From Chlamydiota bacterium (lineage in GTDB: Bacteria > Chlamydiota > Chlamydiia > Chlamydiales > JAAKFR01), in contig JAJFLY010000006.1 in assembly GCA_021772455.1 (NCBI GenBank), forward strand, positions 19,641-83,640: DNA of 64,000 bases. Direction: 5' to 3'. Of this stretch, positions 1-17,007 are shown piece after piece. The translations under genes were made by a program, and so were the position numbers. A model generated the notes under the pieces. It was not told the DNA's origin and searched no databases. It saw nothing but the letters and a program-made list of their open reading frames with translations. Position 1 is the stretch's first letter. The number at the start of each line of letters is the position of its first letter.

Positions 1-1
1 A

Positions 2-265: not shown

Positions 266-271
266 GCAATT

Positions 272-2182
272 TTGGACGATATCAAACACGTATACAAGGA
301 CAATTATCTTCGCTATGCCTCCTATGTCATTTTGGACAGGGCGATCCCCCATGTGATTGACGGGTTGAAGCCCGTGCAGCGTCGCATTTTGTGGATGCTT
401 TTCAAGATGGATGACGGGAAGCTGCATAAAGTAGCAAACGTCGCCGGACAAACGATGGCCCTCCACCCACATGGCGATGCACCAATCATCGATGCTCTTG
501 TCAATCTCGCAAATAAGGGCTATCTCCTCGATATGCAAGGGAATTTCGGTAATCCCCATACTGGTGATCCTGCAGCTGCTGCGAGATATATCGAAACGCG
601 TCTGGGCGAGATGGCAAGAGAAACACTCTTTAACCCTGCGCTTACCGAATTTACCCCCTCCTACGATGGACGGGCCCAAGAGCCTGTTACCCTGCCAGCA
701 AAAATCCCTCTCTTGCTCATGCAAGGAGCTGAAGGGATTGCTGTTGGGATGTCCACAAAGATCCTACCCCACAACTTCCAAGAACTCCTAAAAGCTGAAA
801 TTGCCATTCTGGAAAACAAACCTTTTAAGGTTTACCCCGACTTCCCCTCGGGTGGGACGATGGACCCAACAGAATACGATCAGGGACGAGGCAAGGTTAA
901 GCTCCGAGCTAAAATGACATCTCCTGACGAAAAAACGCTCGTGATCACTGAAATTTGTCACGGAACCACAACAGAATCGGTGATCCGCTCCATTGACGAG
1001 GCGGCCAAAAGGGGAAAAATCAAAATCGATTCGATCAACGATTACACCGCAGAAAAGATTGAGATCGAGATCAAACTCCCCCGCGGACAGTATGCAGACA
1101 AAATCATTGATCAGCTCTATGCTTTCACCGATTGTGAAGTTTCAATCAGCACACAGCTGCTAAGTATCCGAGACCAAATGCCTTGGGAAGGAACCGTTGA
1201 TGGGATTTTAAAACTCCATGTTGAACTTCTACAAGGCTATCTGAAAAAAGAGCTCGAAATTGAGCGCGATCGACTCCTTGAAAAAATCTTCGAGAAAACT
1301 CTCGAACAGATCTTTATCGAAAACCGTCTCTACAAACAAATCGAGAATGTAGCAAGCTTCGACAAACTCCACTCCACCATTGAAACGAGTTTAAAGCCAT
1401 ACCATAAGCAACTTGCGCGTATCCCTAACCGTGAGGATCAAGATAGGCTTCTTGCCATTCCAATCCGCCGCATTTCACGCTTTGACATCGAGAAAAACCA
1501 GGACGATATCTCTGCGCTCGACAAGAAATTGATGGAGGCCGAAAAAGATCTCAAAAACATCAAAAAATTCACAATCAACTACCTCCAAAGTCTTCTCAAA
1601 AAATACGGCGATCTTTTTCCACGCCGCACAAAAATTAAAGAGATCGAGGTGATCGACAAGCGAGAAATTGCAAAGAAAATTGTGAAAGTTGGCTACGACT
1701 CTGAATCGGGGTATATTGGGACAAAAGTTTCTAGCCCTCAAACTGTTGAGTGCAGCTCCCTCGACAAACTTTTGATCCTTTTCAAAGATGGCTCCTATCA
1801 GGTCATGAATATCCCCGATAAGCAATATATCCACACAAAAAAAGTGCCAGCCATCTGGATAGGACCTGCCGATAAAGAGACGATTTTCCGAGTCCTTTAC
1901 AAGGATAAGAAGACAAATTATCCCTACGTGAAACGCTTTATCGTGAAACAGTTTATCCTTGAAAAAGAGTACTCCTTTTTGGATGATGAGAGCAAACTTG
2001 AGTTTATCAGCACCCACAAGGGCCTCGTTTTGCTCCTGACATTCAAGCCCAAGGCACGGCAGAAAGTGAATAAGCTGGAATGTACCCTAGATGAAGTGGC
2101 GATCAAAGGAGTGAGTGCCAAGGGAGTGCGCATTGCAAATAGGGAACTGAAAACAATTAAGATTTACAAAAGTGAGGGATAG
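272..2182 (+). CDS. parC: DNA topoisomerase IV subunit A (short GyrA/ParC-family protein)
   Basis: The N-terminus YASYVILDRAIPHVIDGLKPVQRRILW and HPHGD are GyrA/ParC hallmarks. The 636-aa length fits the short ParC-like form. The start is TTG, 7 nt after the B-subunit stop. Confidence 0.8.
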   Translation: MDDIKHVYKDNYLRYASYVILDRAIPHVIDGLKPVQRRILWMLFKMDDGKLHKVANVAGQTMALHPHGDAPIIDALVNLANKGYLLDMQGNFGNPHTGDPAAAARYIETRLGEMARETLFNPALTEFTPSYDGRAQEPVTLPAKIPLLLMQGAEGIAVGMSTKILPHNFQELLKAEIAILENKPFKVYPDFPSGGTMDPTEYDQGRGKVKLRAKMTSPDEKTLVITEICHGTTTESVIRSIDEAAKRGKIKIDSINDYTAEKIEIEIKLPRGQYADKIIDQLYAFTDCEVSISTQLLSIRDQMPWEGTVDGILKLHVELLQGYLKKELEIERDRLLEKIFEKTLEQIFIENRLYKQIENVASFDKLHSTIETSLKPYHKQLARIPNREDQDRLLAIPIRRISRFDIEKNQDDISALDKKLMEAEKDLKNIKKFTINYLQSLLKKYGDLFPRRTKIKEIEVIDKREIAKKIVKVGYDSESGYIGTKVSSPQTVECSSLDKLLILFKDGSYQVMNIPDKQYIHTKKVPAIWIGPADKETIFRVLYKDKKTNYPYVKRFIVKQFILEKEYSFLDDESKLEFISTHKGLVLLLTFKPKARQKVNKLECTLDEVAIKGVSAKGVRIANRELKTIKIYKSEG

Positions 2183-2488
2183 ATGGGGGAATCAAGCGGT
2201 ATTGGTGGCGGCGGGAGCTTGCCGATTAAACCTAATGAGCCTGAAAAGCTTGGTGATGTCACCGGCCAACCTAGTGGTGGCTCCATCGAAAATGCCCTGC
2301 ACACACCGGTCAAGAACTTAAACCAGCTCAAACAAGTTTTGATCGAAAACCTCGGCAAAAAAGAAGGAACCAAAATGTACAATGGCTTTGTCAAATCATT
2401 TGCCATGCAGATGCTCAGCCAAATGCAGCAATCGGCAGCTCAAGCAAAAAAAGCCGCGCAACAAATGCGGCAAGGCCCTCAAGGTTAA
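2183..2488 (+). CDS. hypothetical small Gly/Gln-rich protein
   Basis: ATG is preceded by GAGGGA. It is tightly packed between parC and the next ORF. I recognise no family. Confidence 0.45.
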   Translation: MGESSGIGGGGSLPIKPNEPEKLGDVTGQPSGGSIENALHTPVKNLNQLKQVLIENLGKKEGTKMYNGFVKSFAMQMLSQMQQSAAQAKKAAQQMRQGPQG

Positions 2489-2490
2489 TT

Positions 2491-2781
2491 ATGTACGATT
2501 TAAAGCTCTTTTTAGGCATTGCTGCTGACGTTGAACTTGAAAAGGCTCTTTCCAAAATTAATCCTCACTTGCTCTCCCTTTATATGAGCGGAGGAAATTA
2601 CCTAAGTGCTGTTTCCCTCAAGGAGCAACGTTATTTCGGGAAGCCTGCCCCCCTCTCATCATCTGTAAATCAGCTCGAAAACCTCGAAACACATCTTCTT
2701 AGCCTTTTAAGAAAGCTCGTTCCTGAATATCCTCTCTCTAAACCTGTCTTAGTGACGCATATCGATGACCATCAACGTTAG
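2491..2781 (+). CDS. hypothetical protein
   Basis: 96-aa ORF placed 2 nt after the previous stop and overlapping the rluD start. I recognise no family. Confidence 0.4.
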   Translation: MYDLKLFLGIAADVELEKALSKINPHLLSLYMSGGNYLSAVSLKEQRYFGKPAPLSSSVNQLENLETHLLSLLRKLVPEYPLSKPVLVTHIDDHQR

Positions 2782-3688
2782 TGAGGAGGAGGCAGAGCTC
2801 AGGCTCGATAAGTTACTTGCGCTGCGTTTCCCAGAATATTCACGCCAATACTTTCAGTCTCTTATCCGAGACAAGCTTGTCCTTGTTAATGGAAGCCTTG
2901 TCAAAAAAGCGGCTAAACTCGAAATAGGCGACGAGATCGAGATCGAGTTTGCTGTCACTCCCGAAATCTCACTTGAACCTGAAAACATTGAACTCGATAT
3001 CCTCTTTGAAGATGACGATTTAATTGCCGTCAATAAACCTGCTGGGATGGTCGTCCACCCAGCTGTTGGAAATTGGTCGGGCACATTTGTCAATGCCCTC
3101 ATCTACCACTGTAAAAACCTTCCCACAGCTGGAACACTCCGCCCCGGCATTGTACACCGCCTTGACAAGGAGACCTCAGGAGTTCTTATTGCAGCTAAAA
3201 ATAAGCGTGCTCAACAACTTATGGTCGAAAAATTCGCAAATCGTCAAATTGAAAAAGTCTATCTCGCCATTTGCATCGGCAACCCCGGAAATAGAGTAAT
3301 CGAAGGGAATATCGGCCGTCACCCAGTTCGTCGCAAGGAGATGGCTATACTGGAAGGTAAGGGGCGCGCAGCACGCACGCGGTGTGAAAGCCTGGGACAC
3401 ACAGATATTTTAAGCCTCGTCCGTCTCTTTCCCGAAACAGGGCGCACCCACCAGCTGCGCGTCCACTTAAAAGGTGCCGGCACCCCTATTTTAGGCGATC
3501 GCATTTATGGAAGCTCTCCTATCAACACAAAACTAGGTGCGAATCGACAAATGCTCCACGCCTACTCTTTGCGATTTGAGCACCCTTTACGCAAAGAAGA
3601 GATTGAGCTTAAAGCCCCTATCCCTCAAGATATGGAAAAATTTATTAAACAAGTCACGAATCATGCGCCTTTTAGTTCAGAGAGTTAA
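2765..3688 (+). CDS. rluD: RluA/RluD-family 23S rRNA pseudouridine synthase
   Basis: N-terminal S4-like region, then LIAVNKPAGMVVHP and the catalytic HRLDKETSGVLIAAK motif. Length is 307 aa. Confidence 0.85.
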   Translation: MTINVSEEEAELRLDKLLALRFPEYSRQYFQSLIRDKLVLVNGSLVKKAAKLEIGDEIEIEFAVTPEISLEPENIELDILFEDDDLIAVNKPAGMVVHPAVGNWSGTFVNALIYHCKNLPTAGTLRPGIVHRLDKETSGVLIAAKNKRAQQLMVEKFANRQIEKVYLAICIGNPGNRVIEGNIGRHPVRRKEMAILEGKGRAARTRCESLGHTDILSLVRLFPETGRTHQLRVHLKGAGTPILGDRIYGSSPINTKLGANRQMLHAYSLRFEHPLRKEEIELKAPIPQDMEKFIKQVTNHAPFSSES

Positions 3689-4103
3689 AGAAGCCCACGT
3701 CTCGGTGAATGAAAAAGTCTGCGGAAAAATCAACCACGGACTTCTTCTCTACTTGGGCATCCATAAAGACGACACCCCTACAAAAACCGACTGGTTGATC
3801 AACAAACTTATCGGTTTACGTATCTTTTGCGATGAAGAAGGTCAAATGAACCACGATATTCAGCAAGCACAAGGCGATGTCTTACTGATCAGCCAATTTA
3901 CCCTTTATGGTGACGTCCAGAGTGGAAGGCGCCCTGGATTTACCGAAGCTGCCCTCCCGGAGCCCGCCTTTCTACTCTATGAACAGTTTATCAGTGAACT
4001 GAAAGAGGCGCTGGGACGCCCAGTGCAAACTGGTGTCTTCGGCGCACTTATGGAAGTCTCCTCAATAAATGATGGCCCTGTTACATTTCTCTTAGAGCGT
4101 TAG
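3663..4103 (+). CDS. dtd: D-aminoacyl-tRNA deacylase
   Basis: MRLLVQRVKEAHVSV... and SQFTLYGD...GRRPGF are the Dtd signature. The track ORF (3537) is over-extended. ATG at 3663 gives the expected ~146 aa. Confidence 0.85.
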   Translation: MRLLVQRVKEAHVSVNEKVCGKINHGLLLYLGIHKDDTPTKTDWLINKLIGLRIFCDEEGQMNHDIQQAQGDVLLISQFTLYGDVQSGRRPGFTEAALPEPAFLLYEQFISELKEALGRPVQTGVFGALMEVSSINDGPVTFLLER

Positions 4104-4210
4104 ATTTATTAAAAAAATATTATGACGTTTCTGTAGCCTAATAAAATACCCTTATAGTAATATCACAATTACGAACGGAAATATCGAATTGTATTTATAG
4201 GTCCAGAAAC

Positions 4211-4471
4211 ATGAAAGACTTTGTAGCTTATATTGTTAAGAATTTGGTTGATAATCCAGACCAGGTCAAGATTACTGAAATTGGCGGCACCCACACTGTG
4301 ATTTTAGAGCTGTCTGTCGAAAAATCTGATATTGGAAAGATTATTGGGAAGCGCGGAAAAACAATTAACGCCATCCGAACACTTTTGATGTCAGTCGCAA
4401 GCCGCAACGGCCTGCGGGTCAATCTAGAGATCCTAGAAGAAGAGGAAGCGGCAGAAGCAGAAGAGAAGTAA
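4211..4471 (+). CDS. KH-domain RNA-binding protein (UPF0109/KhpA-like)
   Basis: The GKIIGKRGKTINAIRTL GxxG KH motif in an 86-aa protein with an acidic tail. Confidence 0.75.
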   Translation: MKDFVAYIVKNLVDNPDQVKITEIGGTHTVILELSVEKSDIGKIIGKRGKTINAIRTLLMSVASRNGLRVNLEILEEEEAAEAEEK

Positions 4472-4522
4472 TCTGCTTTTTTCGTGAATTTTACTTTGAG
4501 ATCCGCTACTATCGTCCCCCTT

Positions 4523-4595
4523 GGACCGATAGCTCAGCGGATAGAGCCCCCGCCTTCTAAGCGGGTGGTCGCAGGTTCGAATCCTGCTCGGTCCG
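4523..4595 (+). tRNA. tRNA-Arg (anticodon UCU)
   Basis: GGACCGA/TCGGTCC acceptor stem, AGCTCAGCGGATAGAGC D-arm, CCCGC-CTTCTAA-GCGGG anticodon arm (TCT) and GCAGGTTCGAATCCTGC T-arm. Length is 73 nt with no encoded CCA. Confidence 0.9.
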
Positions 4596-4600
4596 TACTT

Positions 4601-5092
4601 ATGACAGAATGCTATATTGGAATTGGGGGCAACTTCCCCCAAACTCTCACGGCCATGCGCGATGCCGTTCAAAAAATTAAGTGCATAGAGGGAATCTCAC
4701 ACCTTAAATCCTCCTCTCTCTATCGCACAACACCCGTCTCAGATATTCCACAGCCCCCCTTTTTAAACGCCGTCTGTCGGTTTGCCTGCCACCTCCCCTT
4801 GGAAGATCTTTGGAAAAAAATGCAGGAAATAGAGTCGGAGCTGGAAAAAGTGCCGAAATCTAAAAATGCCCCCCGCCTAATCGATCTCGATCTTCTTTTT
4901 TTTGGCGATACAGTGTATGATTCTCCTGAGTTGATTCTCCCACATCCTAAATGGCATGAAAGGCTTTTTGTCCTTGTACCATTAGCAGATGTGACCGATA
5001 CTCTCCCTCTGGGGATCGACATGGGCGAGTTGCTTAAAAAATTTTTAAATCCTCATAATGAACAGGTTATAAAATGCGGAACCTTAACTTAA
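4601..5092 (+). CDS. folK: 2-amino-4-hydroxy-6-hydroxymethyldihydropteridine pyrophosphokinase
   Basis: YIGIGGN..., FLNAV, PRLIDLDLLFFGD and LPHP are HPPK motifs. ATG at 4601 comes directly after the tRNA. The track ORF start (4484) runs through the tRNA. Confidence 0.8.
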   Translation: MTECYIGIGGNFPQTLTAMRDAVQKIKCIEGISHLKSSSLYRTTPVSDIPQPPFLNAVCRFACHLPLEDLWKKMQEIESELEKVPKSKNAPRLIDLDLLFFGDTVYDSPELILPHPKWHERLFVLVPLADVTDTLPLGIDMGELLKKFLNPHNEQVIKCGTLT

Positions 5093-5859
5093 AAAATTTT
5101 TTCGTAGTTTCTGGTCCTTGTGTAATCGAGAGCGAGGCGCACGCAATGCAGTGCGCAGAATTTTTGGTCCCCCTTTTTGAAAAGAAGGGTGTTCCATTCA
5201 TTTTCAAGGCGAGCTACGACAAAGCCAACCGCTCCTCGCTTAACTCTTTTAGAGGTCCAGGCATCGAAGAGGGATTGAAAATTCTAGAGAAAATCCGCGA
5301 TACATTCTCCATTCCTGTCTTTACCGATATCCACTCTCCTGAAGAGGCACGCCAGGCCGCCGATGTATGTGATGTGATTCAAATTCCTGCATTTTTGTGT
5401 CGCCAAACCGATCTTCTCATCGCTGCTGGAAATACAGGGGCAATTGTCAACGTGAAAAAAGGGCAATTTATGGCCCCTTGGGACATGAAAAACGTGATCG
5501 ACAAGCTTGAATCGACTGGAAACAATAATATCGTCATCACAGAGCGCGGTACGAGTTTTGGGTACAACAATCTGGTGAGCGACATGCGCGCCATTCCGAT
5601 CATGGAAAAGCTTGGTCACCCCATCCTTTATGATGCTACCCACTCGGTCCAGCTGCCGGGCGGTAACGGAGAGTACTCCGGTGGACAGCGCGAATTTATT
5701 CCAGCCCTATCGCGCGCGGCCCTCGCTGCAGGAGCGACAGGAATTTACGCGGAGGCCCACCCCGACCCGGACAATGCAATGAGCGACGCAGCCTCGGTAA
5801 TCCCCTTTAGCGAGCTTCCCGATCTTATCGACAGCTGGCTGCGCATCGCACATGTATAA
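5074..5859 (+). CDS. kdsA: 2-dehydro-3-deoxyphosphooctonate (KDO-8-P) aldolase
   Basis: VSGPCVIES, FKASYDKANRSS, IQIPAFLCRQTDL and ERG..FGYNNLV are typical KdsA blocks. Length is 261 aa. Confidence 0.9.
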   Translation: MRNLNLKNFFVVSGPCVIESEAHAMQCAEFLVPLFEKKGVPFIFKASYDKANRSSLNSFRGPGIEEGLKILEKIRDTFSIPVFTDIHSPEEARQAADVCDVIQIPAFLCRQTDLLIAAGNTGAIVNVKKGQFMAPWDMKNVIDKLESTGNNNIVITERGTSFGYNNLVSDMRAIPIMEKLGHPILYDATHSVQLPGGNGEYSGGQREFIPALSRAALAAGATGIYAEAHPDPDNAMSDAASVIPFSELPDLIDSWLRIAHV

Positions 5860-6577: not shown

Positions 6578-7305
6578 TGAAGCCGCCGATTTTAGAGGTT
6601 CAAAATCTAGAAAAAAGTTATGGAGATCGCAAGGTAGTTTCGGGCCTTTCATTTACCATCCAAGAGGGTGAAATTGTAGGCCTGCTAGGTCCAAATGGCG
6701 CTGGAAAAACAACAGCTTTTTATATGACAATGGGGCTAATCCGCCCCGATAAAGGGACGATTCTTTTCAAACAAACCGATGTCACAAAAATGCCGATCGA
6801 CAAACGGGCAAAAATGGGAATGGGCTATCTTGCTCAAGAGCCCTCTATCTTCCGTAGTTTGACTGTCGAAGAAAACATTCTATGCATTCTAGAAACGCTG
6901 CCCATCACCAAAAAAGAGCGGCTCCACCGTCTGGAGAAACTGCTACATGAGTTGAACCTCGAAAAGCTCGCGAAAAAAAGAGCAGCAGGTCTTTCCGGTG
7001 GGGAAAGGCGTCGTTTAGAAATTACTCGCGCACTTGTTACAAATCCCTCGTTCCTCTTGCTTGATGAGCCCTTTGCTAACATCGATCCAATCGCAATCAA
7101 CGATGTGCAACACATGATCCGCCTGCTTGCCAAAAAGAAAATCAGCGTCCTCATTACCGACCACAATGCGCGCGAAATTTTCTCGATTGTAGACCGGAGC
7201 TACTTAATTCGTGATGGAAAAGTCTTTCTTTCTGGTACTGTTGATGCATTAATTCACAACGAAGAAGCGCGCCACACATACCTCGGCGCAGATTTTAAGA
7301 TATAA
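6571..7305 (+). CDS. lptB: LPS export ABC transporter ATP-binding protein
   Basis: Walker A GPNGAGKTT, signature LSGGERRRLEI, Walker B LLLDEPF and a C-terminal ...ARHTYLGADFKI typical of LptB. Confidence 0.85.
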   Translation: MVMKPPILEVQNLEKSYGDRKVVSGLSFTIQEGEIVGLLGPNGAGKTTAFYMTMGLIRPDKGTILFKQTDVTKMPIDKRAKMGMGYLAQEPSIFRSLTVEENILCILETLPITKKERLHRLEKLLHELNLEKLAKKRAAGLSGGERRRLEITRALVTNPSFLLLDEPFANIDPIAINDVQHMIRLLAKKKISVLITDHNAREIFSIVDRSYLIRDGKVFLSGTVDALIHNEEARHTYLGADFKI

Positions 7306-7317
7306 GGAAATTCAGCT

Positions 7318-7875
7318 ATGACGAACGTATTAATTGTTTATGCCTCTCAGTATGGAAGCACCAAAAAAATGGCCAAGACAATCGCCTTAGGTGCAAAAGA
7401 AGAAGGAGCAGAGGTCACACTCAAAATGGCTCCTGAAACGACCACCGAAGATCTTATCAAAGCTGATGGCATCATCTTTGGAAGTCCCGTCCATATGGGA
7501 AGCATGGATTGGCAGATGAAAAAATTCATCGATGAGGTGTGTAGCAAATTGTGGATGGAGAACAAGCTCAACGGCAAGGTGGGCGCTGTTTTTGCAACAG
7601 GGAGCGGATTTGGGAATGCTGGTGGAGGGTGTGAGCTCACTATGCTCTCGATGCTAAATAACCTTGTCGAGCTTGGCCTTTTGTTCATTCCCCTCCCAAA
7701 AAACACCCCTGGCTATGCCGATGCAGGCCTTCAATGGGGACCTTATGGGAGAAGCATGGGACCTAACATGGAACAGACTGGATTAACTGACGAGCAACTC
7801 GAAGCGGCGCGCCACCACGGCAAACATGTTGCCAGAGCTGCCAAGCTTATAAAAGGGCAGCCCCTCTTCTCATGA
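7318..7875 (+). CDS. wrbA: flavodoxin-like NAD(P)H:quinone oxidoreductase (WrbA type)
   Basis: VLIVYASQYGSTKKMA flavodoxin start, GSPVHMGSM and a length of about 185 aa. Confidence 0.7.
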   Translation: MTNVLIVYASQYGSTKKMAKTIALGAKEEGAEVTLKMAPETTTEDLIKADGIIFGSPVHMGSMDWQMKKFIDEVCSKLWMENKLNGKVGAVFATGSGFGNAGGGCELTMLSMLNNLVELGLLFIPLPKNTPGYADAGLQWGPYGRSMGPNMEQTGLTDEQLEAARHHGKHVARAAKLIKGQPLFS

Positions 7876-8762
7876 AGGAAAAGATGCGTTCCTTTGCCCA
7901 CGGCACCATTTACATGGTGCTGTCTGCGGCAAGCTTGTCACTCGCCTATCTCTTTGTAAAGATCAGCACCGCTGAGGTTCCCTACTTCCTACTCGTCTTT
8001 TTACGTTTCATCATCCCCTTCCTCTTTCTCGCCACTGTTTTTGCAATCGGGCGAAGATCGATTAAAACCCAGTCGCTGCGGGCCCATATGCTCCGCATCC
8101 TGTTTGTCTTAATCGCCCAATACAGCATCTTCTATTACATCTCAAAAGACTCGCTCCTAAACGCAACCGTATTGCTCAATACCTCCCCCCTCTTTATCCC
8201 TCTGATCGAGTGGTTTTTCTTAAAATACCGCATCCCCAAATCGACCTGGATCAGCATGGTGATTTCGGCCGTGGGGGTTGTCTGTATTCTACAACCAGGC
8301 ACAGGCCTTTTCTCTAAATTAAGCCTTATCGGCCTCCTTGCAGGAATTTGCCAAGCCGGCTCACAGGTCGTTTTTGGCCTGAGCGCAAAAAAAGAAGCCC
8401 CAGAGATTTCTCTCTTCTACCTCTTTGGCTTTGGGAGTATCCTCTCGTTTTTTCCGTTAATTGGGCAAAGGACTGCGCTCGAGGTTTCGTGGACACCCAG
8501 TCTTATCGTTTTTATCTTGCTTCTTTCATCTGCAGGCCTGATGAACCAGTACTTTCGAGGAAAAGCCTATGCTCACCGCAAACCCTCAACACTCTCAACC
8601 TTTCTCTATCTTTCGGTCCCGATTTCAGGTTTTTTTGACTGGTTTGTCTTTTATGATGTTCCAAATACCCTTTCGATTATCGGGGCTATTCTAGTAATTG
8701 TGGGGGGTGGTTCAAAGATTGCGCTCAGGTACTACTTCCTCAAGCGCAAGCAGACTTTATAA
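7872..8762 (+). CDS. EamA/DMT-family transporter
   Basis: About 10 hydrophobic segments in 296 aa with a duplicated EamA-like architecture. Confidence 0.65.
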   Translation: MKEKMRSFAHGTIYMVLSAASLSLAYLFVKISTAEVPYFLLVFLRFIIPFLFLATVFAIGRRSIKTQSLRAHMLRILFVLIAQYSIFYYISKDSLLNATVLLNTSPLFIPLIEWFFLKYRIPKSTWISMVISAVGVVCILQPGTGLFSKLSLIGLLAGICQAGSQVVFGLSAKKEAPEISLFYLFGFGSILSFFPLIGQRTALEVSWTPSLIVFILLLSSAGLMNQYFRGKAYAHRKPSTLSTFLYLSVPISGFFDWFVFYDVPNTLSIIGAILVIVGGGSKIALRYYFLKRKQTL

Positions 8763-10916
8763 GAATTGCTTTTCGACAAAGCGCATGAAAATCCCCTCTT
8801 GTTTCGCAAGATCGCGAAATTTTCCAGAAGCAATTATCTTCTTATCATCCATCACGAAGATTTGATCGGCCATCTCCAAAACATTTAGGCGATGGCTCGT
8901 TAAGATAATTGTTTTGCCAAGCGCTTTCATGTTGTTCAGCACCCTCTCCTGGGTCTGATTATCCAAGGTATTTAACCCCTCATCGATAATCAAGATCGAA
9001 GGATCGGCAAGTAAAGCTCTGGCAAGTAAGATTTTCTGCTTTTGCCCCCCCGACAAGAGCCCTCCAATACTCGAAAGCATGGTGTCAAGTCCCATAGGAA
9101 GCTCAGGGAGGATCTCATCAAATGTAGTAGCCGCGAGCGCCTCCTCAATCATCTCAGAAGAGCATCTACGCCCACATGTCAGATTATCATAGATATTTCC
9201 GTTAAAAATCTTGTTCTCTTGGTGGACAAAACCTATTTGCTTTCGCAACTTAAAGACATCTATCTCAGTCATATCTTGGTCATCAAAGAAGAGTGTATTG
9301 GGCTCGCACGCTTCGAAGCCAAAGAGGATGCGGCAAAGGGTAGACTTCCCACACCCTGTTTTTCCAACAAGCCCCACAAACTCCCCTTGGCGAATGCTTA
9401 AGTTTAAGTCCTTCAAAATAAGAGGTGTTTCGGATCCATAGCGAAAATGAAGATTTCTTACGGTAATCTGCCCCTTGAGCCTTCCGGGATCGGCTTTTTC
9501 TTCTGTTTTCTCCGGAGGGGTCGTAAGCAGAGGCCCTACCCTTTTCCAAAATGGATAGAGCTCTGTTATGGAGGAGAGTGTTCCAATTAACCCTAGCAAT
9601 GACTGAGAGAAAGGGGTAAATGCTGCCAAAAATCCTAGAAAAGTACCGATTGAGATCGCTGTAATGGAAGGATCGGTCTGCCCTTGGCTTTTTTTATAAA
9701 TCACAAAGCCATAGATCGAAAGTGGCAGCAATACCTTCATAAAGGCGGCTGTTGCCTTCACGACATTTTCAAGATTGATAATTTTAAATGTCAGAGACTG
9801 GTTATAAGAAAAGGAGCGCGCCCACTTGGAAAAAATGCGCTTTTCTAATGCGGCTGAACGCACCTTGTTAATGCCGTTAATCACTTGAACAAGAAAAGAT
9901 TGAATCTCAGCTGTCGAAGCTAAAAGTTTCTTTTCTAGACGAATTTTGTAGATTGCAATGGCAATTACAAACACGCTCCAAATGAGGGCCAAGCTAAGTC
10001 CAAGTAGGGTTAATTGCCAGCTAAAGTAAAATGTCAACACCAGGTAGAAGAGGCCAAAAAAGCTGTTTAATAAGACAGTCAATGTACCAGAGGAAATAAT
10101 ATCTTTGATTTGCTCGAAAATCATCGTCCGCTCTAATAAATCACCACTCGTGATGGTGCGAAAAAAATTGAGGGGTAAGCGGAGAAGACGATCCCAAAGG
10201 GTGATTTGGATCTTATTTGTTAGAAGTCCCCTGATACGCAAAGTGATGACGGCGCGGAAAAATGAAAAGACAGCACTACTTAAAAGAATGACAAAAAGAC
10301 CAATAAATAGCTGCGTGTAGACAGTGAAGTTATAGTTCGGGATCACATAGTCAAATAAGACTTTGTTCACAAAAGGCAAAGCAAAGCCCAGCACAAGCGC
10401 TGCGAGCCCTATTAAGAAAAGGGAGGTGTATTCCCACTGCATTTTTGAGACAACAGCCGAAAAAATCCCTCGAAATTTCCCCACATCCTTGGGAAGAGAT
10501 GGGTAGAGCATGATGGCTTCATCTACAAGAAGGTGGGCCGTCTTTTCATCAACAACTGTGTGCTCTTGTGTTTCAGGATCAACAAAGTGATACTCTTTGT
10601 GGTCATAAAAAATGACCGAAACGGGTCTTTTCTCTTTCTTGTAAAAACCAACAAAGTGGCCATGGTCTTCCTTCCACCACTCAGCCTGAAGAGTGATCTC
10701 GCGGTGACGGAGGACCCCTGGACTGCAAATCTCCTCAATATCTGTACTCTCCTGCACCGAAATAAGAAGAGAGACCCCTATTTTATCCGCGACGCAAGCG
10801 CACGCTTTAAATAGTAAGCTCCCCTCTCCTGCAGGAACCGTTTCCAATTCACGAGTCGCGATCACCTTCTTCAAATGCTTTAACGACTGCTCGACGAGAT
10901 TATCATCACTTTCCAT
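8757..10916 (-). CDS. ABC exporter (TMD+NBD) with an N-terminal degenerate C39-like domain
   Basis: Walker A GKTGCGKST, LSGGQKQKI, ILIIDEG and a six-helix TMD. The N-terminal ~140 aa aligns by eye to the C39 domain of the 13849 gene (HGHFVGF, FVDP) but lacks the Gln placed 6 residues before the Cys. The track start at 10952 is TTG, so I prefer ATG at 10916 (MESDDN...). Confidence 0.8.
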   Translation of the reverse strand: MESDDNLVEQSLKHLKKVIATRELETVPAGEGSLLFKACACVADKIGVSLLISVQESTDIEEICSPGVLRHREITLQAEWWKEDHGHFVGFYKKEKRPVSVIFYDHKEYHFVDPETQEHTVVDEKTAHLLVDEAIMLYPSLPKDVGKFRGIFSAVVSKMQWEYTSLFLIGLAALVLGFALPFVNKVLFDYVIPNYNFTVYTQLFIGLFVILLSSAVFSFFRAVITLRIRGLLTNKIQITLWDRLLRLPLNFFRTITSGDLLERTMIFEQIKDIISSGTLTVLLNSFFGLFYLVLTFYFSWQLTLLGLSLALIWSVFVIAIAIYKIRLEKKLLASTAEIQSFLVQVINGINKVRSAALEKRIFSKWARSFSYNQSLTFKIINLENVVKATAAFMKVLLPLSIYGFVIYKKSQGQTDPSITAISIGTFLGFLAAFTPFSQSLLGLIGTLSSITELYPFWKRVGPLLTTPPEKTEEKADPGRLKGQITVRNLHFRYGSETPLILKDLNLSIRQGEFVGLVGKTGCGKSTLCRILFGFEACEPNTLFFDDQDMTEIDVFKLRKQIGFVHQENKIFNGNIYDNLTCGRRCSSEMIEEALAATTFDEILPELPMGLDTMLSSIGGLLSGGQKQKILLARALLADPSILIIDEGLNTLDNQTQERVLNNMKALGKTIILTSHRLNVLEMADQIFVMDDKKIIASGKFRDLAKQEGIFMRFVEKQFL

Positions 10917-10995
10917 ATGTTTTTCTTTAATCCATCGAGGAAATATTGCCAATCATTGAAAAAAACATTAGTGTCGGTTTGGGAGGGATATTCTT

Positions 10996-12684
10996 ATGCG
11001 AGCAATGATTGCTCTTGCTGCTGTAACTTTGCTAAATTTGTCTGTTTTTGCCGAATTCTCTTCAACAAAGGAAGAGGAGCTGGAAGAAGCGCGCACTCTT
11101 TTAGAAGGTACACCTACTCAGCCTCCGGAAGAGATCTTACAATGGCTTAGGTCGAAGAAAATCTTAGAAGAGACACCCATTGAAGAGTTTGGAAGCAAAG
11201 AGATTCCCCCTTCAGAAATCTCTTTATCCAATGCAATCTCAACGACATTACGCAACCAGTGGAAAATTGAGATCAGTGAAAGTGAGGTCGTCCGCAGGTA
11301 TGGGGAGTGGCAAGAGTCTGCAGGTCCGTTTGATCCTGTTTTAACCTCTACGTTTGGAAATACATGGCTGCTTGACCCCCAACAACTTGGAAACAAAACC
11401 AATGAAACAGGTTCTATCACAACCCTAGAAGTTGCTGTAGAAAAGCTGACCCGTCCTGGAACGCAGTTTAGTCTTGGATCTAGAGTTAAACGCACTCACA
11501 ACCCCTCACTGATTGTCACAGTTCCAGACTTCACCCGTTTTAACGGCTCTTCTCTTGTGTTTGAGGTCGTTCAACCTCTTTTGCGTGGATTTCTCTACAA
11601 TGAAGCTGCTGTAGAAGAAAGAATCTCCTCTATGGAATTTGATGCTTCCAAGTATCTTCTTGTCCAAACAATGTCTGAAGAGGTCTTGAATTCCATTACA
11701 GCGTATTGGGAGCTTGTCGCTGCCGAAAAAATCGTTGAAATCAATGTAGATGCACAACACATTTTAGACGGCTTAACTCAAGCAACCTACAGACTCGTTG
11801 AAAAAGAGCAGTTGGCAGCCTCCGAGTTAAATGAACAAATCGCTGAAATTGCTAGAAACCGGCGCGACCTTGTCGCATCGAGACAAGCTGTCTATGAGGC
11901 CTATAACGCCTTCCTTTTTCAGATCGGAGAGAGGAAATGCACATTTAGCGAAAATTTACCCCATTTAATCTTGGATAATTTCATCTTGCCCCATGGCGAT
12001 AAAAGAGAGTGGGATCTCGACTGCCTGCTCAATCAAGCCTATGACCACAGAGGAGACTTGATCGCAGCGCGCATTGCCGTGCAAGAGGCCGATTTACTCT
12101 ACCGCTTGGCATGCAAAAATGTCCTCCCATCTCTCGATGCATCTTTTGAGGTTGAGCTCCTAAATAGCTCCATTGAAAGACCTTCGCAGAGGTTGTTCGC
12201 CTCTTATTATCCAAAACAAATGGAGAAGGATATTTCAGCCGAAATCAGGCTCTCCATCCCTTTTTGGAACGATCGTGCACGGGGCGCCCGGACGCAGAGG
12301 CGAGAAGAGCGGATGCAAGCCTTTCTAGAAGAGAATGAACTTTGGTCGAGTATCTACTCCGACATTGCCACAATTTTACGCGAGCAAATTGAGCTCGTTG
12401 ACGAGATATATTATGCCACCAAAGCTGCCGAGTGGTACGAGATTGCGCTCAGAGATGAAATCATGCGAACCAAAGAGGGGTATGGCTCCTTGTTTGTTGT
12501 CATCGACTTTGAGAACAGATTTCGCAGAACATTGCTGGAACGGGTCGACGTCCAAAAGCGCTATTCTCAAAATATTGCGCAGCTCCTTTTTCTAACAGGG
12601 ACGCTTGTGCTTGTTGATACGGTTACCCAAGAAATAGAAATAGACCCTTTTAATTACGATCATTTATTGGTGAGTCATGAGTAA
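10996..12684 (+). CDS. TolC-like outer-membrane efflux factor
   Basis: Signal peptide MRAMIALAAVTLLNLSVFA. The 562-aa protein has two long helical/coiled repeats typical of OEP-family proteins. GGGAGGG SD. It is the first gene of an operon with the HlyD and ABC genes. Confidence 0.7.
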   Translation: MRAMIALAAVTLLNLSVFAEFSSTKEEELEEARTLLEGTPTQPPEEILQWLRSKKILEETPIEEFGSKEIPPSEISLSNAISTTLRNQWKIEISESEVVRRYGEWQESAGPFDPVLTSTFGNTWLLDPQQLGNKTNETGSITTLEVAVEKLTRPGTQFSLGSRVKRTHNPSLIVTVPDFTRFNGSSLVFEVVQPLLRGFLYNEAAVEERISSMEFDASKYLLVQTMSEEVLNSITAYWELVAAEKIVEINVDAQHILDGLTQATYRLVEKEQLAASELNEQIAEIARNRRDLVASRQAVYEAYNAFLFQIGERKCTFSENLPHLILDNFILPHGDKREWDLDCLLNQAYDHRGDLIAARIAVQEADLLYRLACKNVLPSLDASFEVELLNSSIERPSQRLFASYYPKQMEKDISAEIRLSIPFWNDRARGARTQRREERMQAFLEENELWSSIYSDIATILREQIELVDEIYYATKAAEWYEIALRDEIMRTKEGYGSLFVVIDFENRFRRTLLERVDVQKRYSQNIAQLLFLTGTLVLVDTVTQEIEIDPFNYDHLLVSHE

Positions 12685-13852
12685 AACAGATCAAGAAACG
12701 ATAGATAGGCTAAGTCAGAGTGAAGCCACTCGCCAACCTCTGACAATTGAATTCCCCAAAAATTGGCCTATTATGGCTGTATTAATTGTACTCGCTTCCC
12801 TCTTAGTTATATGGGCATTTTGGGGGCGCATCCCCACTCAGATTAATGGACAAGGTGTTTCACTCAACCCTTCAGGAACCTTTTTGGTGGAGGCCAATAC
12901 CGCTGGAAAAATGATCGAATTTTTTGTTCACGAGGGGGAAGAGGTCGAAAAAAGCGCCCCTTTGGGTGTGATTTATAACCCTGATCTTAAATCCCTTTTA
13001 GTTCAAATTGAAACGACAGAGTACAAGATCATCCACCTAAAATCCGAACTTGCTCTTTTAGACAAAGCCCTCGAAATTAATGAAGAGCTGTTTGAGGAAG
13101 GGCTCGTTGCAAAACTGATAGTCGATGGAGCAAAGGCTAAAGTCTATGACAAACAAATTTCGATCGAAGAGGCAAAATCCGAACTTAAGACGTTATTTTC
13201 GAAACTAGAAAATTCCTCTCCCGCATCAGGAGAAATTGTCCAGTGGGCTAAGGGTCAGCTACTTGACAGCAAACCCACTCTCGACCTTCAAAGTATTGAA
13301 GATGAACTTTCAATTATTCGCTCGCCAGAGAAAGGAACAGTGCTTGAAATTCTCGTCGGTGAAGGAGATCACATCGACCGGAAAGAGCCGATCATCTGGG
13401 TTGAGCATCCCTTAGACGCTGATGAACAAGAGGTTTTCTACAGCACGGTAAATGCAAATGTGATTGGACGGGTCGAGCCCGGTATGCGCGTGTTGATCGA
13501 ACCACTGATTGTCAACCCACGCGAATATGGAGCCATTATTGGAGAGGTGAAAGACGTTTATCCCTATCCAGTTTCACAAGAAGAGCTCGTTCAAACGATT
13601 GGAAACAAGCAAATCGTCAAATTTCTGCTCGGCGAATCGCCCGTTGTCACCCTTCTAGTGGTGAATCCCAAATCCGACCCAGAAACGGTGAGCGGTTTTG
13701 AGTGGACCTCTGAGCAAGGTCCTCCATTTACGATCCCAACAGGAACCGTGTGCAACCTAAAGCTCGTCATCGAAGAGCAACCACCCATTTCGTATCTGAT
13801 TCCTCTTTGGAGAATTAAAGAGCCATTCACCAACCAGGAGCCTGAAAAGTGA
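12677..13852 (+). CDS. HlyD-family membrane-fusion (periplasmic adaptor) protein
   Basis: Single N-terminal TM (WPIMAVLIVLASLLVIWAFWG), a central coiled coil and a beta-barrel C-terminus. Its start overlaps the TolC-like stop. Confidence 0.8.
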   Translation: MSKTDQETIDRLSQSEATRQPLTIEFPKNWPIMAVLIVLASLLVIWAFWGRIPTQINGQGVSLNPSGTFLVEANTAGKMIEFFVHEGEEVEKSAPLGVIYNPDLKSLLVQIETTEYKIIHLKSELALLDKALEINEELFEEGLVAKLIVDGAKAKVYDKQISIEEAKSELKTLFSKLENSSPASGEIVQWAKGQLLDSKPTLDLQSIEDELSIIRSPEKGTVLEILVGEGDHIDRKEPIIWVEHPLDADEQEVFYSTVNANVIGRVEPGMRVLIEPLIVNPREYGAIIGEVKDVYPYPVSQEELVQTIGNKQIVKFLLGESPVVTLLVVNPKSDPETVSGFEWTSEQGPPFTIPTGTVCNLKLVIEEQPPISYLIPLWRIKEPFTNQEPEK

Positions 13853-15990
13853 TCCGAACGCCGCGTCTTATTCAAATGGAAGCCGTGGAGTGTGGGGCTG
13901 CTGCCCTCGGAATCGTGCTGGGGTATTACAAACGGTTCGTTTCTCTTGAGGAGCTCCGCCTCACGTGTGGAGTTTCGCGCGACGGAGTAAACGCCTTTGG
14001 AATGATTCAAGCCGCAAGATATTATGGTTTAGAAGGAGATGGCTACCACGCAACAGCTGAAGATTTAGCTAAAGTAGACACGCCGGCCATTCTACATTGG
14101 GGGAAAAATCACTTCGTTGTTCTAGAAGGGATTCGCGGCACGTCCGTTTCGATCAACGACCCCGCAACAGGCCCCCGAAAGGTCCACATCGAGGAGCTTC
14201 AGCAACAATTCTCAGGAATTGTGATCGTTTTAAAGCCGTCAGAATCCTTTGAAAAAAAAGGGAAAGATATCTCCTTGGCTTCCCAGCTAAAAGAGCGGTT
14301 TTTCGCCTTTACTCCTGAAATTGCCTATCTGTTTGCATTCGCGGTTGTCGCCCTCGTCTTCTCGCTTGCCCTGCCAGCCATCTCTAAAATCTTTGTCGAC
14401 ACCTTCTTGCAAGGCACTCTCCCCTCCTGGAAAAAGGAATATTTGTTGTTTATGGGCTTCATCATGGTTGCTGTTACCACCATCGCATGGTTTCAAGGCC
14501 TCTTTACAAATCGTATGTTGGTGGGACTCACGATACGATTTAATACCCAATTTCTTCGCCACCTTCTCTCTCTGCCCATCTCATTTTTCTCTCAACGTTT
14601 TCCTGGAGAGATTTTGGATCGTATCGAGTTAAATACCAGACTAGCCTCTGTCTTTATTGGGGGAATTGTCAGCAGCGTTTTAAGTCTTATTTTGGTCTGC
14701 GTCTACGGCTTTATCCTCTTTTACTACAACAGGCTCATTGCCCTGATCGGCATCTCTGCTGGTTTCTTTAATATCTTTTTGCTCTGGTGGATCAACAGAA
14801 CACGGGTCCACGCCTACGCGCGCTTGCAACAAGAAGAGGCAAAAACCGTTGGGATCTCCTACGACATCCTCGACAACATCGACACGATGAAGAGCGTCTC
14901 GGGCGACTCCTTCTTCTTCTCAAGAATTGCCGGCCACTACACCAGTGCAATCAATGCCATGCAAGCAATTGGACGAAAAGATGTCTTTTTAGGGGCTTTT
15001 TCTTCCCTCTCAATCGGAGTGACAAACCTCCTCTTATTAGCTGTAGGAGCGTGGCTTGTGATGAAAGGAGAAATGACAATCGGGATGCTTTTTGCCTTCC
15101 AAATGATCATGGGAAGCTTCCTTGCCCCTTTCAGCAAACTCCTTCAGTTTGGAGCCGCTCTTCAGACGCTCAAGGTTGATATTGCGCGGGTCGATGATGT
15201 TCTACAACACAAAATCGATGTCTTATTAGAGCCCAAAGAGAATGAAGAGGAGACCACTAAACTTGAAGGGAGGGTGGAATTTCATCAGATCAGTTTTGGG
15301 TACGCCCTCTTAGAAGAGCCCTTTATTTCAGATTTAAGCCTGACCATTCCAAAAGGGGAAATGGTAGGCGTTGTCGGTCCTATTGGCTCGGGCAAAACAA
15401 CCCTCATCAAATTAGGCTCAGGGCTTTATCAACCCTGGAAGGGATCGATCTTGCTCGATGACAAGTCCCTCCTCGAACACTCAAGAGAGACGCTCAAATA
15501 CTCACTTGCAAGCGTCGATCAAGAAATCAAGTTATTTGCTGCCACCATCTATGAAAATATCGCCCTTTGGGATAGTAGCGTGACCGAAAAAATGGTTGAA
15601 GAGGCTGCCAAAAAAGCGCTGTTGCACGATGAGATCATGCGCCTTCCCTTTGGCTACCATACCAAGCTGCAAGAGAGAGGGGCAAATATTAGCCAAGGGC
15701 AAAAACAACGCTTAGAGCTCGCCCGGGCGCTCTTGTATGACCCTTCCATTCTGATCTTAGATGAGTCTCTCAACTCGGTTGATTCCGAAACAGAGTCCAA
15801 AATTTTAGCCCAGCTTCAAGAGCTTGGATGTACAACCCTCCTTGTCTCTCACCGTTTAAGCACGGTCAGACACTGCAATCGGATTCTGGTGATGGAAAAA
15901 GGAAAGATCGTGGCCGCTGGAAAGCATGAGGAGCTCATGAAGAGCTCAGAGCTTTACCAAAATTTATGCACATTTGAATTGAATCGCTAA
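13849..15990 (+). CDS. peptidase-containing ABC transporter (PCAT): C39 cysteine peptidase + TMD + NBD
   Basis: The N-terminal LIQMEAVECGAAALGIV has Gln9/Cys15. NHFVVLEG supplies His88 and SINDP supplies Asp104, giving an intact C39 triad by eye. Walker A GPIGSGKTT, ISQGQKQRL and ILILDES. GTG start overlaps the HlyD stop. Confidence 0.85.
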   Translation: MIRTPRLIQMEAVECGAAALGIVLGYYKRFVSLEELRLTCGVSRDGVNAFGMIQAARYYGLEGDGYHATAEDLAKVDTPAILHWGKNHFVVLEGIRGTSVSINDPATGPRKVHIEELQQQFSGIVIVLKPSESFEKKGKDISLASQLKERFFAFTPEIAYLFAFAVVALVFSLALPAISKIFVDTFLQGTLPSWKKEYLLFMGFIMVAVTTIAWFQGLFTNRMLVGLTIRFNTQFLRHLLSLPISFFSQRFPGEILDRIELNTRLASVFIGGIVSSVLSLILVCVYGFILFYYNRLIALIGISAGFFNIFLLWWINRTRVHAYARLQQEEAKTVGISYDILDNIDTMKSVSGDSFFFSRIAGHYTSAINAMQAIGRKDVFLGAFSSLSIGVTNLLLLAVGAWLVMKGEMTIGMLFAFQMIMGSFLAPFSKLLQFGAALQTLKVDIARVDDVLQHKIDVLLEPKENEEETTKLEGRVEFHQISFGYALLEEPFISDLSLTIPKGEMVGVVGPIGSGKTTLIKLGSGLYQPWKGSILLDDKSLLEHSRETLKYSLASVDQEIKLFAATIYENIALWDSSVTEKMVEEAAKKALLHDEIMRLPFGYHTKLQERGANISQGQKQRLELARALLYDPSILILDESLNSVDSETESKILAQLQELGCTTLLVSHRLSTVRHCNRILVMEKGKIVAAGKHEELMKSSELYQNLCTFELNR

Positions 15991-16019
15991 AAAAATAAAG
16001 CCCTCCGCTGGGAGGGCTT
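15991..16019 (-). terminator. intrinsic terminator hairpin between convergent genes
   Basis: AAGCCCTCC (15998-16006) pairs with GGAGGGCTT (16011-16019) around a GCTG loop. On the minus strand it is followed by TTATTTTTT, so it best serves the peptide gene. It also sits 8 nt after the PCAT stop. Confidence 0.65.
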
Positions 16020-16055
16020 ACCTCAACTCTAAAGAACCTTGAACCACAGGCAATG

Positions 16056-16373
16056 CTACAGCAAAATAACAGGTACTTGTGGCTGTGGGTTGCTGGGATT
16101 AAGCGGTGGTAGTGTAGTGTTATCGTCTATAACACCCCCATCATCACCCCCACCATCTGGAATGGTACCGTTTCCGCCCCCATCAACTGGGCCAGGTACT
16201 GGCTCTGGTTCAGGTGTAGGCTCAGGTTCACTATGGTGACCGAAGATTCTTGCTAGCCAGCCCATAATAAGACTGCGCAATCTCATTCTGAAACCACTGT
16301 ATCTACGGAACCCAAAGCCCCCTCGCACCTCTCTTAGAGTCTCTTCCGAGGCTTTTTTAAGTTCAATGCCCAT
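16056..16373 (-). CDS. double-glycine-leader secreted peptide precursor (bacteriocin-like), 19-aa leader + 86-aa core
   Basis: MGIELKKASEETLREVRGG matches the GG-leader pattern: hydrophobic at -4 (V), -7 (L) and -15 (L), Ser at -11, and GG at -2/-1. AGGAG SD lies 7 nt upstream of ATG. It has its own terminator and is adjacent and convergent to the C39 exporter. Confidence 0.7.
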   Translation of the reverse strand: MGIELKKASEETLREVRGGFGFRRYSGFRMRLRSLIMGWLARIFGHHSEPEPTPEPEPVPGPVDGGGNGTIPDGGGDDGGVIDDNTTLPPLNPSNPQPQVPVILL

Positions 16374-16403
16374 AAAAAATCTCCTCTCTCATATAAGAGA
16401 ATA

Positions 16404-16422
16404 GGGGGATTTATTGTCCCCC
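16404..16422 (-). terminator. hairpin downstream of pabA (candidate terminator/attenuator ahead of the peptide gene)
   Basis: GGGGGA...TCCCCC is a 6-bp stem. On the minus strand it is followed by TATTCTCTTATAT. It lies between the pabA stop (16459) and the peptide ATG (16373). Confidence 0.4.
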
Positions 16423-16458
16423 TCGTTAACTCTATTGTACACAATATTTTATAAAAAA

Positions 16459-17007
16459 TCAAACCTTAAGGAAGTTGTTAAGAAGCACTAAGCCATCTGC
16501 CGTCGCCACAGACTCAGGATGGAATTGAACACCGAAAATCGGCTTAGTTTTATGGCGCAACCCCATTACCTCTCCTTGATCAGTCCAGGCAGTCACTTCA
16601 AGCACATCGGGTAAATTTTCTAGGATAAGAGAGTGGTAGCGGGTCGCCTCAAAAGGGAGAGGAAGACCTTTAAAAAGCCCCTCAGAGCGATGATGGATCA
16701 AAGAGGTCTTACCATGCATCACGCGCAGTGCGTGGCTCAAAATGGCTCCAAACACCTCTCCTATCGCTTGGTGCCCGAGGCAAATTCCAAGAATGGGAAC
16801 GCTTGCCTTCTCGATTAACTCTTTGGAAATCCCCGCTCCTGATGGATTGCCCGGACCTGGCCCGATAACCAAAAGGGAGGGGTCTTTATCTAATATCTCT
16901 TGGGCAGAAAGTGCATCATTACGCACAACTTCCACCTTCTGCCCAAGAATTTGAAACGCCTGCACAATGTTGTACGTAAACGAATCGTAGTTATCTACCA
17001 AAATCAA
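16459..17007 (-). CDS. glutamine amidotransferase component II of anthranilate/aminodeoxychorismate synthase (TrpG/PabA)
   Basis: [25 protein letters not shown] (catalytic Cys) and FGVQFHPES are class-I GATase TrpG/PabA motifs. Confidence 0.85.

Follow-up and report, generated by a model that had tools for sequence, protein, structure and literature searches.

Chlamydiae are usually viewed as secreting proteins through type III systems, and to our knowledge the export of ribosomally made peptides has not been characterised in them. What, then, is the role of a cluster of four export genes lying next to a small open reading frame (ORF) in a 64-kb stretch of a Chlamydiota genome (contig JAJFLY010000006.1; the whole stretch is referred to here as the window)? 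The four genes encode a TolC-like outer-membrane factor (OMP), a HlyD-type adaptor and two ATP-binding cassette (ABC) proteins, of which ABC1 carries a C39 peptidase domain and ABC2 does not, and the small ORF encodes a 105-aa peptide with a double-glycine (GG) leader. The original prediction, made from the sequence without database searches, was of a type I secretion locus built around an ABC transporter that contains a peptidase (PCAT), with a GG peptide as its substrate.

Domain and family matches support that reading. We assign a probability of roughly 0.6 to the full interpretation, namely that the locus is a functional four-component type I peptide secretion system of the NHLM/NHLP family with a cognate substrate and an antagonistic, microcin-like role. 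The parts of this interpretation differ in strength: the identity of the exporter and its substrate is held with high confidence, the predicted mechanism of cleavage and export is probable, and an antibacterial role for the peptides is tentative, at somewhat below even odds.

The exporter is a branch of the NHLM family

The NHLM/NHLP export cassette combines genes for a HlyD protein (TIGR03794), a C39-ABC protein (TIGR03796) and a second ABC protein (TIGR03797), which co-occur with GG precursors (Haft et al. 2010, PMC2887384) and correspond to clusters termed 'group V' in cyanobacteria (Wang et al. 2011, PMC3140520). The same three families were the best, full-length matches of the window proteins, in agreement with the original prediction, which had likened the two ABC proteins plus HlyD to an NHLM-type arrangement; all three transport genes lie within 7.3 kb. 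HlyD scored 172.5 bits against TIGR03794, above the cut-off of 156.2. ABC1 scored 805.6 bits against TIGR03796 (positions 1-708 of 710; cut-off 853.3) and ABC2 632.6 bits against TIGR03797 (positions 3-685 of 686; cut-off 709.4), both below their cut-offs, and these were the best families for the two proteins by more than 440 and more than 300 bits, respectively. We regard ABC1 as functionally a member of TIGR03796, on a divergent branch. Pfam profiles gave Peptidase_C39 (PF03412) in ABC1 (7.4e-34, covering positions 6-132 of the 133 in the profile), ABC_membrane and ABC_tran in ABC1 and ABC2 alike, and OEP in the outer-membrane factor (4.4e-15, in two stretches).

For comparison we examined the genomic context of the seven closest relatives of the window ABC1 (loci L002-L008), whose ABC1 proteins are 74, 69, 64, 56, 51, 48 and 44% identical to it. 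The catalytic residues Gln9, Cys15, His88 and Asp104, which had been picked out by eye, are conserved at 8/8 loci. Cys15, His88 and Asp104 are invariant across the clade alignment, the catalytic Cys and His thus standing in place, and Gln9 lies in a conserved TPRxIQMEAVECG motif that was found at all eight loci after truncated gene calls had been extended upstream. ABC1 has, in sum, the N-terminal C39 domain with catalytic Cys and His, oxyanion Gln and Asp that is expected of a PCAT. For the closest ABC1 homologues (P0005-P0007), public gene calls place the start at Met10 and so drop the TPRxIQ segment with the oxyanion-hole Gln (affected regions: L002 4304-4330, L003 6190-6270 and L004 9953-10000); their true starts are likely upstream non-ATG codons, comparable to the GTG start of the window ABC1.

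The two ABC proteins differ in one of their ATPase motifs. Those of ABC2 are all canonical (Walker A, LSGGQ, Walker B-Glu and H-loop), as are Walker A, Walker B-Glu and the H-loop in the nucleotide-binding domain of ABC1. The ABC1 signature motif, however, is ISQGQ in the window (residues 613-617, positions 15685-15699) and ISQGQ, LSQGQ, FSSGQ, FSEGQ or LSQGE in the 8/8 clade members, with Q, S or E at the third position, whereas outgroup ABC1 proteins have Gly there in 79/79 cases (LSGGQ-type) and ABC2 retains LSGGQ. The non-Gly signature may give the presumed heterodimer an asymmetric ATP site.

ABC2 opens with a conserved N-terminal domain of ~165 aa that had no Pfam match even at E up to 1 and for which a profile search of the PDB returned only chance matches to chalcone synthases. 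A degenerate C39-like domain (CLD) of the HlyB type, lacking the catalytic Cys, was considered as a conceivable identity of this region: hhalign against C39 gave a probability of 3% with a plausible aligned register, and a single-sequence AlphaFold2 model reached a predicted local distance difference test (pLDDT) score of 44. ABC2 also lacks the N-terminal extension of 160-300 aa typical of most outgroup (non-chlamydial) ABC2 proteins. A CAP_ED/cNMP domain has been described for cyanobacterial ABC2 homologues (PMC3140520); Pfam detected none in the outgroup ABC2 extensions tested.

Peptides at related loci share a leader and differ in their cores

The 105-aa ORF had been credited with a Shine-Dalgarno site and a terminator of its own, and both were confirmed: the ribosome-binding site GAGAGAGGAG (16390-16381) lies 7 nt before the ATG, and a GC hairpin followed by a T-run (16019-15998) lies 37 nt past the stop codon. 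Upstream is a promoter-like TTGATT-17-TACAAT sequence at 16462-16434 (-35 at 16462-16457 and -10 at 16439-16434). At the four positions that C39 domains are known to read, -4, -7, -12 and -15, the leader has Val, Leu, Ala and Leu, respectively; it is followed by a core of 86 aa (9.2 kDa, pI 4.8) without Cys. This core begins with a cationic, hydrophobic head carrying a charge of +6 in its first 28 residues and continues through a Pro/Glu spacer and a Gly/Asp-rich segment to a Pro-rich tail ending ILL.

All seven related loci (7/7) have the exporter genes with one to three small GG-leader ORFs directly beside them, and in no case was the peptide ORF absent or disrupted where the exporter was kept. 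In total, ten such ORFs occur over the 8/8 loci, all with GGAGG-type ribosome-binding sites. The pattern expected of a PCAT substrate extends across them: every leader has Leu at -7 (10/10) and a hydrophobic residue or Ala at both -4 and -12 (10/10), while -15 is occupied by a hydrophobic residue in 9/10. Leader lengths fall in the range 15-21 aa, and the sequences include MDKFLKKASEKTLREVWGG in L002, MDKFLKKASEEELKRITGG in L003 and MFNKDIKKVPEEDLRKIVGG in the three copies of L004. The cores, by contrast with the leaders, are mutually unrelated and range from 32 to 86 aa, the ten cargoes spanning 3-9 kDa. BLASTP of the window peptide against that of L002 aligned only residues 5-19, within the leader (13/15 identical).

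The same boundary is seen in the DNA. Alignment with L002 and L003 showed conservation of the -10 element, a hairpin in the 5' untranslated region (UTR), the ribosome-binding site and the leader, and homology stopped at the GG codons. Within the leader, differences from L002 and L003 fall largely at codon wobble positions, which indicates selection on the leader protein. The -10 element, hairpin and ribosome-binding site recur in all three cassettes of L004, where 11979-13660 comprises three tandem promoter-UTR-leader-core-terminator units with different cores, separated by a duplicated fragment of the ABC1 3' end. A GC hairpin with T-run also follows the peptide genes of L002, L003 and L004. 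Two of the L004 cores, which are Gly/Ala/Ser/Thr-rich, have tails that are first His-rich and then Asp/Glu-rich (HHKHHKHHKHHERDDDDGERDD), and in L006 a 112-aa fragment of the ABC1 C-terminus (11393-11731) lies between the peptide gene and ABC2.

Conservation confined to ~15 leader residues also explains why sequence searches miss this family, whose members were found by synteny. A word-indexed search with the window peptide among 5.8 billion clustered proteins returned only the peptide itself, an exhaustive phmmer search over 1.84 billion representatives returned itself and one low-complexity repeat protein, and a leader-DNA pattern scan of metagenome contigs found a second accession of the L003 locus and no new members.

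A short leader alone is no novelty, because GG precursors with short leaders (19-26 aa) also adjoin the NHLM cassettes of many outgroups. The leaders of the clade are basic (KKxxEExLRxVxGG), in contrast to the acidic NHLM-type leaders (ELSxEELDxVAGG).

The 5'-UTR of the peptide genes has a recurrent pattern in which a G-rich arm similar to a ribosome-binding site (GAGGGGGA or GAAGGGGA) precedes a complementary C-rich arm (UCCCCC or UUCCCUCUUC), and the true site comes next. It was found in the window (16374-16428, minus strand; hairpin at 16423-16403), in L002 (6707-6757), in L003 (8626-8676) and three times in L004 (12380-12432, 12956-13004 and 13536-13590). In the predicted folds the C-rich arm pairs alternately with the upstream G-rich arm or with the true ribosome-binding site, and the motif could act as a translational switch or as a stabilising 5' hairpin. 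Although the motif recurs, its folding z-scores are weak (-2.4 to +0.2), and we do not claim a structured regulatory 5'-UTR.

Distribution of the exporter

The system is not unique to the window genome. In a neighbour-joining tree, ABC1 falls in a clade of at least 33 clusters with chlamydial context that excludes all 80 named outgroup loci, and clade ABC1 proteins are 40-42% identical to those of the outgroups; we place the window system within this clade. The arrangement of the transport genes is conserved in L003, L004 and L006-L008, and also in L002, where ABC2 is cut by the contig end; the contig of L005 ends before any ABC2 gene. The OMP homologue has the equivalent place in the operon in L002-L004, L006 and L007 and follows ABC2 in L008, and among the outgroups it is present in 15/80 loci, in the order OMP-HlyD-ABC1-ABC2. 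This order, seen in L007, is common to Acidobacteriota, Kiritimatiellae and others, whereas in the subclade of the window ABC2 has been shifted to a divergent (inverted) position.

A scan of a genome collection with ABC1 gave, among at least 600 matches listed, ~40%-identical homologues from Cyanobacteria, Acidobacteriota and others, and no chlamydial genome was among the matches listed. An entry identical to the window ABC1 was looked for and was not on record. An ABC1 homologue in a Parachlamydiales metagenome-assembled genome (MAG) is already named as such in the NCBI annotation. The exporter is, in this light, a lineage-specific branch of a known and very widespread family. The peptide family with conserved leaders and hypervariable cores, on the other hand, appears to be previously undescribed in environmental chlamydiae. 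The searchable literature yielded no account of PCAT or GG-peptide systems from chlamydiae, and generic antiSMASH 'RiPP-like' clusters have been reported for some chlamydial families without detail (Dharamshi et al. 2022, PMC9666466).

A second, more typical NHLM system occurs at 7119-15101 of L091, which belongs to a 2.4-Mb genome that appears to be chlamydial and to encode a 72%-identical ParC. It comprises OMP, HlyD, ABC1 and a 985-aa ABC2 with the N-terminal extension, and adjoins IS481-type and DDE transposases; no GG-peptide ORF was found within 10 kb. Its ABC1 lies outside the clade of the window, which suggests a separate acquisition.

Proposed mechanism and comparison with known systems

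In Gram-negative bacteria, C39 PCATs export their cargo through a membrane-fusion protein and a TolC channel, CvaAB-TolC being the paradigm. By analogy, the 105-aa precursor would be transcribed from its own promoter, and its 19-aa GG leader would dock in the single C39 domain of ABC1 and be cut after Gly19. ABC1 and ABC2 would form a heterodimeric exporter with one peptidase domain, and the HlyD adaptor together with the dedicated TolC-like channel would allow the 86-aa core to cross both membranes in one step. The steps of transcription, docking and cleavage, and heterodimer export are modelled on the known behaviour of the family. The cargo would leave unmodified, since no tailoring enzyme is linked to the locus. 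Natural ABC1-ABC2 fusions, which are found in cyanobacterial group VII clusters (PMC3140520), support the heterodimer, and the only function reported for PCATs is the export of peptides with a GG signal (PMC12219008).

The locus resembles several characterised systems in part. With the NHLM cassette it shares the pairing of a C39-ABC protein with a second, peptidase-less ABC protein, and GG precursors with hypervariable cores beside the transporter. It departs from the NHLM outgroups in its separate ABC1 clade, in ABC1 and ABC2 scores just under the equivalog cut-offs, in the non-Gly ABC1 signature, in an ABC2 that is unextended and, in the subclade of the window, inverted, and in having no NHLP or Nif11 precursor and no tailoring enzyme at the clade loci. 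The microcin V system CvaA-CvaB-TolC likewise combines a PCAT with a membrane-fusion protein and a TolC-type channel; the window, however, has two ABC proteins instead of a CvaB homodimer and encodes its outer-membrane component within the locus instead of borrowing it. ABC1 aligned over its full length with PCAT1 of Clostridium thermocellum (4ry2, 3.8e-96) and with Streptococcus ComA (8hf4, 6e-77), which share its C39-transmembrane-nucleotide-binding architecture and the catalytic Cys and His. These two are homodimers of monoderm bacteria working without adaptor or OMP, in contrast to the one-peptidase heterodimer in a diderm tripartite assembly that is proposed here.

Role of the exported peptides

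Diversifying secreted peptides are most typical of bacteriocins. The finding of conserved leaders together with replaced or duplicated cores in close relatives therefore makes antagonistic peptides similar to class II microcins the most likely cargo, and the peptides are most likely under diversifying selection and aimed at bacteria sharing the host cell or habitat. Like class II microcins, the putative cargo would derive from an unmodified precursor with a GG leader of 15-19 aa and have a mature mass below 10 kDa, and the Gly/Ala/Ser/Thr-rich cores of L004 are similar in composition. Unlike class II microcins, the clade loci have no immunity gene, and the peptides show no sequence similarity to known microcins.

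Several points weigh against this interpretation. ABC1 and ABC2 fall slightly under the NCBIfam equivalog cut-offs. No immunity gene adjoins the peptide in the window or its relatives, which is unusual for self-toxic class II microcins; in agreement with the original prediction, neither a modification enzyme nor an obvious immunity gene was found within ~7 kb of the window locus, and no conserved small membrane-protein ORF that could serve as an immunity candidate was found beside the peptide in the window or relatives. The window core is acidic overall and Pro/Gly-rich, unlike any known bacteriocin, and its head is weakly amphipathic (hydrophobic moment at most 0.29), on which ground we do not claim an amphipathic helix of the antimicrobial-peptide type in this region. 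Obligate intracellular life offers limited opportunity for classical bacteriocin warfare. Finally, the inspected portion of the genome is 64 kb, and unlinked genes for modification, immunity or further precursors are possible.

A more specific version of the antagonistic reading, that environmental chlamydiae keep a rapidly diversifying arsenal of unmodified peptides, with conserved basic GG leaders and exchanged or duplicated cores, which leave the bacterium for the inclusion or host cell and there act on co-infecting bacteria or on competing chlamydiae, is speculative and on present evidence unlikely. If it held, the interference or protection that symbionts mediate inside protist hosts, for which the mechanism is currently unknown (PMC6520448, PMC9666466), would gain a molecular basis.

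The peptides could instead be effectors directed at the host or the inclusion, released into the vacuole or the host cytosol. The lineage is chlamydial and its known members are obligate intracellular bacteria, rapid diversification without an immunity gene would suit host-interaction factors, and a possible host interaction has been suggested for chlamydial biosynthetic gene clusters (Dharamshi et al., PMC9666466). No eukaryote-like motif or domain was found in any core, however, and free-living bacteria commonly have this exporter family together with comparable short-leader peptides. Chlamydiae, moreover, possess a type III system for host effectors, and on balance we consider a host-directed function distinctly unlikely.

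A signalling function, as pheromone or developmental cue, would be in keeping with the lack of an immunity gene beside the peptide. The GG peptides ComC and BlpC act as signals in streptococci, and a few clade peptides gave weak, sub-threshold, leader-only matches to ComC and EntF induction factor models as well as to class II bacteriocin models. PCATs export signalling peptides and bacteriocins alike (PMC7018657, PMC7595303). On the other side, no histidine kinase, response regulator or Rgg-type regulator adjoined any of the eight loci, and the cores, at 32-86 aa, are unrelated, whereas pheromone cores normally co-evolve with their receptor and stay homologous. The three different cores of L004 better suit an arsenal, leaving a signal a little less likely again than a host effector.

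[quoted passage not shown] The exporter family was defined via modified-peptide precursors, tailoring genes can be distant (PMC2887384), and only the 64 kb of the window entered the inspection. Yet in the known NHLP and Nif11 precursors the leader is ~70-83 aa long and shares homology with nitrile hydratase alpha or with Nif11, against 15-21 aa in the clade, and with E relaxed to 10 the models for these families (TIGR03793 and TIGR03798) still matched 0/10 clade peptides. Cys is missing from eight of the ten cores, no core shows an excess of the Cys/Ser/Thr patterns that are typical of lanthipeptide or thiazole/oxazole-modified microcin (TOMM) precursors, and no tailoring enzyme was found within 10 kb at any of the eight loci, so we judge a RiPP improbable. 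That the ORF is a chance frame and the exporter serves substrates encoded elsewhere would fit a core of low-complexity composition without homologues, but this explanation is effectively refuted by the comparative data, since leader, ribosome-binding site, promoter and terminator are kept at the same position in relatives and a leader pattern, derived in part from these same sequences, matched one ORF in the window against a mean of 0.02 per 64 kb in 100 Markov simulations.

With the leader consensus, chlamydial genomes can be mined for cargo genes that lack annotation, and the ten natural cargoes are of a size amenable to synthesis or expression. If any core is antibacterial, the locus would provide a candidate mechanism for competition among intracellular bacteria sharing a host; if none is, it would represent an ordinary lineage-specific branch of a widespread transporter family.

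Layout of the locus and its surroundings

The four clustered export genes were recovered as predicted, with ABC2 divergent from three plus-strand genes that overlap by 8 nt (OMP/HlyD) and 4 nt (HlyD/ABC1) and are translationally coupled. The ABC2 frame is open as far as a TTG at 10952, and its homologues start at the position of the ATG at 10916. Divergent promoters for ABC2 and for the OMP-HlyD-ABC1 operon presumably sit in the region between them, in which no consensus promoter scored.

Table 1. Coordinates of the features of the peptide-export locus in the window.
Feature	Position	Strand	Basis or detail
ABC2, half-transporter ABC permease/ATPase without peptidase domain	8757-10916	-	NHLM_micro_ABC2 type
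ABC2/OMP divergent intergenic region	10917-10995	.	position only
OMP, TolC-like outer-membrane factor, N-terminal signal peptide, 562 aa	10996-12684	+	Pfam OEP
HlyD-type membrane-fusion (periplasmic adaptor) protein	12677-13852	+	TIGR03794
ABC1, C39-peptidase ABC transporter (PCAT), GTG start	13849-15990	+	PF03412, TIGR03796
Terminator hairpin between convergent ABC1 and peptide genes	15998-16019	-	9-bp stem, 6 GC pairs, then T-run
105-aa peptide ORF, convergent to ABC1	16056-16373	-	
Predicted mature core peptide, 86 aa	16059-16316	-	
Double-glycine leader, 19 aa, MGIELKKASEETLREVRGG	16317-16373	-	
Promoter-like site, 5'-UTR and ribosome-binding site of the peptide gene	16374-16462	-	

The locus is flanked on one side by genes for KdsA, an LptB-type ATPase, flavodoxin and EamA, and on the other by genes for a PabA-type GATase, NDK and RuvA. 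The proposal that it had been inserted between conserved blocks was borne out in part: synteny of the left flank with relatives was found, and no empty site was seen in a comparison in which the context of the closest relative reached only to the flavodoxin gene. One relative, whose ParC is 85% identical and which comes from the sample that also yielded L004, is syntenic from ParC to KdsA and its sequence ends before lptB; its export system lies on another contig in a different gene context.

The chlamydial assignment of the genome is upheld by a short-form ParC (272-2182), all named relatives of which are chlamydial: MAGs of Chlamydiales and Chlamydiae (up to 86% identical), Waddlia chondrophila (66%) and Parachlamydiaceae. 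Run SRR15505518 also yielded an assembly of the organism.

Conflict-related genes occur near the exporter at two of the related loci. In L007, a gene ~2 kb upstream of the OMP gene (1-5191) encodes more than 2,226 aa, including an Ntox28 toxin domain and ankyrin repeats, and in L002 an AbiEi/AbiEii toxin-antitoxin pair (7048-8920) lies directly beside the peptide gene.

Beyond ndk, the window contains ORFs (17586-18236 and 18369-18813, plus strand; 19866-21611, minus strand), with products of 216, 50, 87 and 581 aa among them, that had no Pfam or NCBIfam match; the small ones were called likewise in the independent assembly L001. At 57642-59195 (minus strand), a 517-aa Gly-rich collagen-like repeat protein, matched below threshold by the SclB and Lcl adhesin models, coincides with the kilobase of highest GC content in the window (0.575).

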